A DNA stretch of 4,919 nucleotides from a virus (Duplodnaviria; Heunggongvirae; Uroviricota; Caudoviricetes): IMG/VR virus record IMGVR_UViG_2913123054_000007, positions 1 to 4,919 of that record; one strand, 5' to 3'. A program made the position numbers and the translations under genes. Each line of letters opens with the position of its first letter. Within the stretch, counting starts at the first letter, position 1. The notes below the pieces were generated by a model, which searched no databases, was not told the DNA's origin, and saw nothing but the letters and a program-made list of their open reading frames with translations. This document shows, piece after piece, positions 499 through 4,919 of this stretch.

Positions 499-603
499 GG
501 CTAGGCAACTAAGCCTGCATTAATGCCAACTTTTAGCGCACGGCTCTCTCCCAAGAGCCATTTCCCTGGACCGAATACAGGAATCGTATTCGGTCTTTTT
601 TTA
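499..603 (+). ncRNA. sdsR: SdsR (RyeB) RpoS-dependent small RNA
   Basis: About 104 nt downstream of yebY with three stem-loops: GCATTAATGC region (~515-527), GGCTCT/AGAGCC (543-560), and a perfect 10-bp terminator hairpin GACCGAATAC/GTATTCGGTC (569-595) followed by T7 (596-602). The sequence and the position next to yebY match what I recall of sdsR. Ends are approximate (+/-3 nt). Confidence 0.65.
580..602. other. Candidate attL core (last ~23 bp of sdsR)
   Basis: Published work that I recall (Salmonella/E. coli ryeA/ryeB locus as an insertion hot spot) places the phage attachment core in the last ~23 bp of ryeB. That corresponds to GGAATCGTATTCGGTCTTTTTTT here, and int ends 130 bp away at 734. 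The exact core limits cannot be fixed without attR or an empty site. Confidence 0.4.
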
Positions 604-2108: not shown

Positions 2109-2163
2109 GCGTGGTTGATTTTTAATAATCAGCTATGAAGTTTTAATTTGAATACAATGCAAT

Positions 2164-2352
2164 TCACGAGGACTGAAGTTGCTCGCAATTAAAATTTATC
2201 AGTTTTACTTTCTGCTCTCTGGAAACGCCTGCTTCTTTTTTACCTGAGAGCATTTTTTCGCATTCTGATTTGGTTAACTTTGTTTTTGAGTACCTTGTCC
2301 AGTTGGTAGGAGAACCACCTTCCTTTTCAATAGTGGTGGTAATTTTATACAT
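2164..2352 (-). CDS. Small basic hypothetical protein (62 aa), possibly YdaC-like by synteny
   Basis: ATG at 2352 is preceded by GGAGGTG at the right spacing; stop TGA 2164-2166. The track's 86-aa version starts inside lar and lacks an RBS. Its position between xis and lar mirrors Rac (intR-xisR-ydaC-lar). I cannot confirm sequence homology from memory. Confidence 0.55.
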   Translation of the reverse strand: MYKITTTIEKEGGSPTNWTRYSKTKLTKSECEKMLSGKKEAGVSREQKVKLINFNCEQLQSS

Positions 2353-2575
2353 GAACACCTCCATTATTATTTCCAGTGGTTCGTTTATTCCATCTTTCGA
2401 GTGCTTCTTTTTCACTTCCACCATAACCGGTTCGGGATTTGCATCCGTTACACTTCGCTCGGTAATATCCTGAAATGGCTTTCACCGTTACTGATGGACA
2501 ACCACAAAATGGACATGGTTTGACTTTTGTGTATCGAACTGGTTTTTCTCCTGTGAGCTTTGTGGCTGCGCTCAT
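2345..2575 (-). CDS. lar: Lar-family restriction alleviation protein (zinc ribbon)
   Basis: 76 aa. CPFCG...CNGC forms a C-x2-C-x17-C-x2-C motif followed by EALERWNKR, typical of the Lar family as I recall it. The start ATG (2575-2573) overlaps the exo stop TGA (2574-2572) as ATGA. Confidence 0.75.
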
Positions 2576-3252
2576 TTCCATTGCTCCCCAAATACAAAAC
2601 CAATTTCAGCCAGTGCCTCGTCCATTTTTTCGATGAACTCCGGCACCATCTCGTCAAAACTCGCTATGTACTTTTCATCCCGCTCAACCACGACATAATG
2701 CAGGCCTTCACGCTTCATACGAGGGTCATAGTTGGCAAAGTACCAGGCATCTTTTCGCGTCACCCACATGCTGTACTGCACCTGGGCCATGTAAGCCGAC
2801 TTTATGGCCTCGAAACCACCGAGCCGGAACTTCATAAAATCCCGGGAGGTGAACGGGCATTTCAGCTCAAGGCCGTTGCCGTCACTGCATAAACCATCCG
2901 GAGAGCAGGCGGTACGCATACTTTCGTCGCGATAGATGATCGGGGATTCAGTAACATCCACGCCGGAAGTAAACTCAAACAGGGCTCTGGCGTCGTTCTC
3001 GTACTGTTTTCCCCAGGCCAGCGCCTTAGCGTTAACTTCAGGAGCCACACCGGTGCAAACCTCGGCAAGCAAGGTGTGGAAGTAGGACATTTTCATGTCT
3101 GGCCACTTTTTTCCTGAGCGGGGTTTTGCTATCACGTTGTGAACGTCTGAAGCTGTGATGACACCTAGCCGTAATTTGTGCCACGCATCATCTCCCTGTT
3201 CGACAGTTCTCACGTCGATCCCGGTACGCTGCAGGATAATGTCTGGTGTCAT
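2572..3252 (-). CDS. exo: Lambda exonuclease (Red alpha)
   Basis: 226 aa, [15 protein letters not shown]...GFVFGEQWK. It is essentially identical to lambda Exo from memory, with a few substitutions. The exo ATG overlaps the bet stop as ATGA. Confidence 0.97.
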
Positions 3253-4034
3253 GCTGCCACCTTCTGCCCTGCGGCTTTCTGTTTCAGGAATCCAAGAGCT
3301 TTTACCGCCTCGGCTTGTGTCAGTTCTGACGATGCGCGAATGTCGCGGCGAAGTATCTGGGAACAGAGCGGCAATAAGTCGTCATCCCATGTTTTATCCA
3401 GGGCGATCAGCAGAGTGTTAATCTCCTGCATGGTTTCCTCGTTAACCGGAGTGATGTCGCGTTCCGGTTGATGTTCTGCAGTGCATGCGGTATTTTCGAC
3501 AATGCGCTCGGCTTCATCCTTGTCATAAATACCAGCAAATCCGAAGGCCAGACGGGCACACTGAATCATGGCTTTATGCCGTAACATCCGTTTGGGATGC
3601 GACTGCCACGGTCCGGTGATTTCTTTGCCTTCTCGGGTTTTGAATGGTTCGCGACGGCACTCATCCATCCACTCGGTAACGCAGATCGGATGATTACGGT
3701 CCTTGCGGTAAATCCGGCATGTACATGATTCATTGTCCTGCTCAAAGTCCATGCCATCAAACTGCTGGTTTTCATTTATGATGCGGGACCAGCCATCAAC
3801 GCCCACCACCGGAACAATGCCGTTCTGCTTATCAGGGAAGGCGTAAATCTCTTTCGTCCACGGATTAAGTCCGTACTGGTTGGCGACGATCAGCAGCGCA
3901 ATGAATTGCGCATCGCTGGCATTACCTTTAAATGCCGTCTGGCGAAGAGTGGCGATCAGTTCCTGCGGGTCGACAGAATCCATGCCGACGCGTTCAGCCA
4001 GCTTCCCGGCCAGTGTTGCAAGTGCTGTACTCAT
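3249..4034 (-). CDS. bet: Red beta single-strand annealing protein
   Basis: 261 aa, [26 protein letters not shown]...; near-identical to lambda Bet from memory. AGAGG sits 10 nt upstream of the ATG at 4034. Confidence 0.97.
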
Positions 4035-4039
4035 TCGTT

Positions 4040-4339
4040 TTATACCTCTGAATCAATATCAACCTGGTGACGAGCAATGGTTTCAACCATGTACCGGATG
4101 TGCTCCGCCACGCGTTCCTGAAATTCAACATCGTTATCAAATGCGCGACTGATTGCCTGTTTGCTGGCACCGTGGCGTTGCAAATGGTCGATGCAGAGCG
4201 ATTCAAACAGGTGCTGGGGCAGACCTTTTTCCAGGTCGTCCGCCAGTTCCGTTTCTTTTTCTTCGCGAACGATCTTCTGGTAGTGGCGTGACCATGCCAG
4301 CTCTTCAATGCGATCAAAAATCGGGCATGTGCTCATCAT
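4040..4339 (-). CDS. gam: Gam, RecBCD inhibitor (short GamS-like form)
   Basis: 99 aa. ...[20 protein letters not shown]...[20 protein letters not shown] matches the lambda Gam C-terminal ~95 residues from memory. The start (ATG 4339 or 4336) lies inside the 3' end of the upstream ORF. Confidence 0.9.
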
Positions 4340-4919
4340 CCGTTACCCCAAAATTTTCAAGTTTGTTTGCGATCATCATTGCAATATCCGGAATTAATGG
4401 CGCTGAGGCTATACCTGCAGGATTCGCACATAAACCGTAAACCGCCGCAATCACCACTTGTCTTTTCCAGTCGAGTTTTTCTAATGATGAAGCTGCTGCT
4501 TCGCCAGTTTCATCACTGCAATCGCGATGCGGATCGCTGCCAGCATTCTCATTGTGCGTATGTTCTGTGCCTTCCATTTCCACCGGATCATTTTCCTTAG
4601 CTTCAACCTGATTCTCTTCATCGAATGTTTCCTGGTATGTTGCGTCGCCCATCACCGCACCACAGTCAGGGCAGTTATCCCCGCCAGTCTGACCGCAGGC
4701 ATTGCAGACTATTTCCGGTTCCTGTTGCACTACTGGCTCAGGTTGTTTCACATCCGGGCTGGTTTTTTCCGTTTCTGGCGTGTTTTGTTCCGTTTCTGGC
4801 TGGTTCTGGTACACAGAATCGCGAGTCTGGATCCCCTTAACCCATTTCGGATCGTTCGGGTCGCTAATTCCGTCAACAAATTCACCACGTGATGCAGCAA
4901 GCAATTTATCGGCATCGAC
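4314..4919 (-). CDS. Acidic, low-complexity protein with CxxC-x7-CxxC zinc knuckle; function unknown (5'-partial)
   Basis: The frame is open to the window edge: the track's 'M' at 4904 is a TTG and the reading frame continues (..[14 protein letters not shown]..). Stop TGA 4314-4316. About 40 D/E versus about 12 K/R by hand count. It has a PETExxT 7-aa repeat, [16 protein letters not shown] (~4660-4708) and a more hydrophobic C-terminal ~50 aa. I recognise no family. Confidence 0.6.

Follow-up and report, generated by a model that had tools for sequence, protein, structure and literature searches.

A Rac-type ralR–ydaC/ralA prophage cassette joined to lambda-type recombination genes: an antisense sRNA gene within a ydaC reading frame that appears to be coding

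The 4,919-nucleotide stretch of Caudoviricetes DNA analysed here (the window) carries int, xis, a 62-residue ORF, a 76-residue ORF, exo, bet and gam, in that order and all on the minus strand (Table 1). The interval 2164–2575 holds a cassette already known from Rac-type Escherichia coli prophages, ralR (Lar)–ydaC/rcbA–ralA, joined to lambda-type recombination genes, and both of its ORFs (2345–2575 and 2164–2352) are real, already known genes; the closest E. coli loci and phage Rac-SA53 are annotated in RefSeq in agreement with the RalR and YdaC identities. The main feature of the interval, missed in a preliminary description of this DNA, is the RalA sRNA gene on the opposite strand.

Table 1. 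Features of the window, with positions counted from its first nucleotide
Feature	Position	Strand	Match or basis
int	734–1810	−	
xis	1776–2063	−	
Rac-derived cassette, 437 bp	2114–2550		sequence comparison with Rac
ydaC/rcbA, DUF1187, 62 aa	2164–2352	−	PF06688, NF007283, phrog_5753
ralA sRNA, 179 nt, wholly antisense to ydaC	2168–2346	+	RF02694
RalA 16-nt interaction site, TGCTTCTTTTTTACCT	2230–2245	+	
RalA 3' hairpin (model helix 6) and U-rich tail	2313–2346	+	
ralR (lar), 76 aa from the exo-overlapping ATG	2345–2575	−	NF007260, TIGR03655, PF14354
GGAGG, ydaC Shine-Dalgarno sequence, inside ralR coding sequence, 5 nt before ATG	2358–2362	−	
RalA target in ralR mRNA, AAGTGAAAAAGAAGCA, codons S-E-K-E-A	2402–2417	−	
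Canonical RalR start-codon position	2537–2539	−	alignment; GTT here
ATGA overlap, exo TGA 2574–2572 / ralR ATG 2575–2573	2572–2575	−	read from sequence
exo, bet, gam, lambda type	2572–4339	−	

The identification of the 76-residue ORF as Lar, already made in the preliminary description, is borne out by the NCBIfam RalR equivalog NF007260 (154.8 bits, cut-off 113, residues 13–76 aligned) and by PF14354 (Lar_restr_allev; 4.9e-14, 52.8 bits, cut-off 28.6); the product also passes TIGR03655, the Lar subfamily model (53.4 bits, cut-off 39.6). Residues 13–76 are the counterpart of the canonical 64-residue RalR, with 94–97% identity to E. coli RalR, and the sole differences from the K-12-type protein are D4T, N5K and E34K. 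The zinc ribbon (CPFC...CNGC) is present, with C21, C24, C42 and C45 invariant in the alignment, and positions 14, 37, 39, 49, 51 and 52 (64-residue numbering), which are reported to be needed for RalR toxicity (PMC4041452), are identical to those of K-12-type RalR. Comparison of RalR with PDB sequences gave only spurious matches to CbpD, and PADLOC gave no match.

At the position aligned with the canonical ralR start, Rac and Citrobacter have ATG, the closest E. coli relatives have GTG and the window has GTT; a canonical start with its own Shine-Dalgarno sequence is absent from the window. The ralR frame has in-frame ATG codons at 2575 and 2581 and no start codon further downstream, and usable Shine-Dalgarno spacing is found only for that at 2575, which has GGGGAG 8 nt upstream and which, as had been described earlier, shares an ATGA with the exo stop codon. 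Since the canonical codon is GTT and no other downstream start is present, RalR would be made from the exo-coupled ATG only, or be silenced. It can be inferred that RalR of the window is a 76-residue form coupled translationally to exo, with a 12-residue N-terminal extension, or is not made. This shift of the start codon, forcing coupling to exo, is a modest new point of the present analysis.

The downstream ORF encodes a basic, lysine-rich protein (pI 9.4, 10 K, 2 R), as the preliminary description had it, but one that belongs to a named family, DUF1187, i.e. YdaC/RcbA, the 'double-strand break reduction protein'. The Pfam, NCBIfam and PHROG matches are full length (PF06688, 1.6e-36, 124.9 bits, cut-off 20.7; NF007283, 132.4 bits, cut-off 92; phrog_5753, 3.6e-40). 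The protein is 90–97% identical to E. coli copies and, at 62 residues, is shorter than the 69-residue K-12 form; it carries two substitutions, A6T and T14S. It has its own GGAGG, again as described, but the start given there, 2 nt beyond the lar stop, is wrong; the ydaC ATG (2352–2350) lies upstream of the lar TAA (2347–2345), giving an 8-nt overlap (ATGTATAA).

Among 22 unique E. coli-type coding sequences of ydaC, 32 sites are polymorphic, distributed 7/3/22 by codon position (binomial P = 4.5e-5), with 25 synonymous and 9 non-synonymous changes (pN/pS 0.10), whereas in the other five frames across ydaC the changes are mostly non-synonymous. Pairwise dN/dS values for DUF1187 are likewise low in Citrobacter (0.04–0.06), Buttiauxella (0.06–0.10) and the Salmonella clades (0.10–0.15), the multi-copy DUF1187 genes of Symbiopectobacterium being the only relaxed group (0.4–0.8). 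Clustering divides the family into 197 groups at 90% identity and 109 at 50%, and all members with a named source organism come from Enterobacterales. Nearly all members are small proteins and keep the pattern MYKITA..W.R.S...T..QCEK...F.C and their own Shine-Dalgarno sequence; ORF length, Shine-Dalgarno sequence and motif are conserved down to ~40% identity.

AlphaFold2 gives a confident beta-beta-alpha-beta model of YdaC (pLDDT 81.4). The structure and profile check proposed earlier for the 62-residue protein thus yields a fold and a family, but not a link to a larger family: an exhaustive profile search with DUF1187 returned small DUF1187-like proteins only, YdaC had no match among PDB sequences, and BFVD gave uncharacterised proteins only. 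The literature on ydaC holds phenotypes from overexpression screens and the RcbA break-reduction phenotype, with no evidence on translation found in it. The clear purifying selection on the DUF1187 frame argues against the published claim that ydaC is non-coding, and suggests that it truly encodes a protein; this coding evidence, with an sRNA gene nested on the opposite strand, is a second modest new point. Our best guess, held with low confidence, is that YdaC is a small basic phage accessory protein which binds nucleic acid or a host factor.

RalA itself is identified by an Rfam scan with RF02694 (205.8 bits against a gathering score of 170, E 9e-50, model positions 1–179). Its interaction site and the target in ralR are complementary at 14 of 16 positions, plus one G-U pair, with 11 contiguous pairs; the site is rich in A and T, and 14/16 is also reached by 3 of 100 mononucleotide shuffles for that reason, so that the complementarity is only marginally above chance. 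The core of the 16-nt site is kept in most E. coli-type loci, in a site table that is offset by one base. The structure alignment of 21 distinct RalA sequences has 95.8% of its cells paired, with almost no variation; helix 5 is broken in more than half of the sequences (78% paired), and the MFE z-score of −0.57 is no better than that of shuffles. A single compensatory pair, which is anecdotal, occurs in the 3' hairpin of the window (G-C to A-U; 2313–2338 on the plus strand, ydaC codons 6 and 13–14), and corresponds to the A6T substitution of YdaC and a synonymous change in codon 13. The covariation count is uninformative, since the E. coli clade barely varies; the RalA structure is thus without independent evolutionary or thermodynamic support here, for which low divergence may be the reason.

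A simple consensus scan upstream of RalA found no sigma-70 promoter; the ~54 bp upstream of RalA are nearly identical to those of Rac, and a TACAAT hexamer can be seen by eye at 2153–2158. Only Escherichia gives a strong Rfam match; the scores in Citrobacter are low (35 and 29 bits), and elsewhere there is no match. In the Citrobacter-type cassettes a 16-mer scan and RNAduplex found no RalA-type complementarity beyond that of shuffles, and the RalR–DUF1187 pair is kept, so that the RNA explanation may fail there.

That explanation comes from work on Rac by Guo et al. in 2014 (PMC4041452), in which RalR was found to be a toxic non-specific DNase that is neutralised by ydaC DNA. Mutation of the ydaC start codon, or an inserted stop codon, did not abolish neutralisation, the active antitoxin being a 179-nt Hfq-dependent sRNA transcribed opposite ydaC, with 16-nt pairing to the ralR coding region. 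His-tagged YdaC protein was undetected, and it was concluded that ydaC encodes no protein; the RcbA break-reduction phenotype was reinterpreted as loss of RalA. The same study disputed the restriction-alleviation role of RalR, a phenotype for which it cites King and Murray 1995. The insert of the construct pCA24N-ralR-ralA used there runs from the start of ralR to the stop of ydaC (PMC4041452). The mapped RalA 5' end lies only 1–2 nt inside this boundary, so RalA must have been transcribed from vector sequence, a caveat to that work.

The association of the two genes is asymmetric. Starting from RalR, DUF1187 lies directly downstream in 39 of 40 distinct loci in viral contigs, the exception being cut by the contig end; conservation of the small ORF with lar, which the preliminary description had left to a co-occurrence analysis, therefore holds from this side, as does the pairing in Rac that it mentioned. 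Starting from DUF1187, RalR is upstream in 69 of 70 E. coli-type and 5 of 5 Citrobacter-type loci, but outside these two clades Lar is upstream in 0 of ~45 distinct loci, which derive from Salmonella, Klebsiella, Buttiauxella, Izhakiella and Symbiopectobacterium genomes and from unassigned viral contigs; association with Lar is not obligate for DUF1187, and the pairing is not constant across the family as had been supposed. The neighbourhoods without Lar include the nin region, after an ORF6N gene and beside RelE/ParE modules, a place between dNTP pyrophosphohydrolase and DNA methylase genes, and another between antiterminator Q and lysis genes. Hence RalR was never found without the ydaC locus, and DUF1187 is an independent small mobile phage accessory gene. 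An antitoxin located in the ydaC locus leads one to expect that RalR is never apart from it; alternatively, the pairing may be synteny that goes back to a common ancestor.

In some Salmonella prophages and in one viral contig clade, DUF1187 adjoins DNA methyltransferase genes (loci L106–L108, 2686–4900; L196, 1684–2406), which may hint at a connection with restriction-modification or DNA damage.

The cassette comprises ydaC/ralA, ralR with its Shine-Dalgarno sequence, and the ~54 bp that precede the RalA 5' end, at 93–96% identity to Rac. It borders a different xis/int at one end and lambda-type exo at the other, both flanks being non-homologous relative to Rac. The 'acidic ORF' at 4314–4904 (minus strand), which the preliminary description had grouped with the anti-defence functions of the operon, is instead an internal fragment of RecE/ExoVIII (NF007259, 2.9e-76, residues 469–600 of 877) that ends 26 nt inside the gam start region; the restriction-alleviation role of RalR is itself disputed, as set out above. 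The RecE fragment indicates that a lambda-type gam-bet-exo block replaced the RecE C terminus and RecT of a Rac-like prophage, and other E. coli strains carry recE-recT at this yebY site.

The best E. coli genomes have only ~94% identity to the whole window, including the core gene yebY, so that the source is probably a divergent Escherichia lineage and not a typical E. coli. Between yebY and the prophage integrase lies the sRNA pair SdsR/RyeB (503–602, plus strand, 118 bits) and, convergent with it, SraC/RyeA (606–462, minus strand, 175 bits), which means that the prophage end abuts the SdsR terminator. In Salmonella, the SdsR/RyeA locus has been described as a hot spot of insertion, and the same sRNA pair lies ~1.5 kb downstream of a Buttiauxella DUF1187 locus (L015).

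The gene identities and their overlaps, the RalA match, its complementarity to ralR, the coding constraint on ydaC and the asymmetric co-occurrence, all seen directly in the window and its relatives, are probably explained by three overlapping genes: a RalA antitoxin gene antisense within a truly coding ydaC, and a ralR that is coupled to exo or unmade. Toxicity, antitoxin action and Hfq dependence are here carried over from the literature on Rac. RalR is the zinc-ribbon protein to which restriction alleviation was ascribed at first and DNase toxicity later, and RalA, lying wholly inside ydaC on the opposite strand, would pair with its 16-nt site in the ralR coding region and block RalR synthesis, as reported for Rac, the two thus forming a type I toxin-antitoxin arrangement. 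The published work accounts for the RalR–ydaC pairing through ralA in ydaC DNA; ydaC/rcbA would be a separate protein gene, with ralA embedded in its antisense strand and its product independent of RalR, as the several other prophage contexts of DUF1187 suggest. Exchange of the C-terminal part of recE and recT for the lambda gam-bet-exo block would have put ralR directly behind exo, and with the canonical start mutated to GTT, translation would begin at the ATG overlapping the exo stop, adding 12 N-terminal residues, or not occur; use of the coupled start is inferred.

Of the alternatives, the one nearest to the preliminary description, which had suggested a shared role for the two proteins, makes YdaC a functional partner of Lar, for example as a co-factor in restriction alleviation or as a protein antitoxin, co-translated through the overlapping stop and start. 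Pairing that is complete from the RalR side, an 8-nt overlap with its own GGAGG that allows coupling, the conservation of YdaC as a real protein, and the Citrobacter-type cassettes, which retain the pair without detectable RalA complementarity, are all in keeping with this proposal. RalR is, however, still neutralised by the ydaC start-codon and stop-codon mutants, which favours the published RNA explanation via RalA (PMC4041452), DUF1187 exists without Lar in ~45 distinct loci, with at least three further gene neighbourhoods among them, and the pairing could be synteny inherited within one prophage lineage. The proposed Lar–YdaC protein partnership is therefore not supported, and we regard it as improbable. 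Still less credible is the published view that ydaC is not a gene, its ORF having arisen by chance from the RalA sRNA gene opposite, even though RalA spans essentially the whole ORF, no YdaC protein was detected and the ydaC mutants were without effect on antitoxin activity (PMC4041452). It would have to accommodate a third-position excess and a pN/pS of ~0.1 in the ydaC frame only, dN/dS values of 0.04–0.15 in clades that include ones without RalR and RalA, a family of many divergent clusters across Enterobacterales and a confident predicted fold, and it would do so for an RNA with neither a covariation nor a stability signal.

There is somewhat more to be said for decay of ralR in the window, in which loss of the canonical start silences the toxin and leaves the cassette as a functionless remnant. 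The series of start codons from ATG (Rac) through GTG (closest E. coli) to GTT is what decay might produce, and toxins are commonly inactivated in prophage toxin-antitoxin modules, which also speaks for it. Against decay, the upstream frame is open to an ATG that has GGGGAG at 8 nt and overlaps the exo stop, the remainder of RalR is intact, including the six toxicity positions, and RalA and its target site are intact, so decay seems unlikely on balance, if the least unlikely of the three. The arrangement of three overlapping genes preferred here leaves room for a further step, to which we give slightly less than an even chance, namely that ydaC was a translated, functional phage accessory gene before its antisense strand was recruited, later and in the Escherichia lineage, for the RalA antitoxin. 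If so, one 190-bp stretch carries a protein gene and a regulatory RNA gene on opposite strands, the 'fewer chromosome breaks' phenotype of RcbA and the phenotypes of ydaC overexpression could stem partly from the protein, and in Citrobacter-type cassettes the protein itself might restrain RalR.

Compared with RalR/RalA of the E. coli K-12 Rac prophage (PMC4041452), the window has the same genes, the same 16-nt site and the same antisense-in-ydaC layout, but lies behind lambda-type exo and not recT, has lost the canonical start (GTT), with the N-terminal extension and ATGA coupling that this implies, and belongs to a prophage at the yebY/SdsR site, that of K-12 Rac being at ttcA. Phage lambda Ral historically had the same reported phenotype as RalR, and a position in the early left operon, but is essentially unrelated in sequence (24% identity; PMC4041452). 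Like RalA, the antitoxins of TisB/IstR-1, ZorO/OrzO and ShoB/OhsC, type I systems whose partly complementary sRNAs are divergently transcribed, use short imperfect complementarity (16–21 nt), without full antisense overlap with the toxin gene (PMC4041452). By contrast, RalR is a soluble zinc-ribbon toxin, the toxins of those systems being membrane peptides, and ralA, unlike their antitoxin genes, lies inside another conserved protein-coding gene.

The cassette as such is ordinary: with 437 bp annotated as ralR plus DUF1187/RcbA, it is present in about a third of complete E. coli genomes (1,922 of 5,426, ~35%), and an explanation of the pairing was published in 2014. Its interest lies elsewhere. 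The comparative data contradict the published statement that ydaC encodes no protein: DUF1187 forms a family of small phage proteins subject to purifying selection. The locus would then exemplify an sRNA gene that lies antisense inside a coding one. The mosaic indicates that the toxin-antitoxin unit travels as one compact block, the DNA upstream of ralA included, and that coupling to an upstream gene may rescue, or silence, a toxin gene that has lost its own start codon.

Two minor observations concern relatives of the cassette. In Symbiopectobacterium (L012–L022) many DUF1187 copies are present, several of them truncated and with IS elements nearby, which is consistent with pseudogenisation in a degrading symbiont genome. 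A ralR–ydaC block with 93% identity to the window occurs at 290–771 of PP818812.1, a record named 'Actinobacillus phage vB_Apl-pPE4'; the host is unexpected, and the record may be a mislabelled or contaminant sequence.
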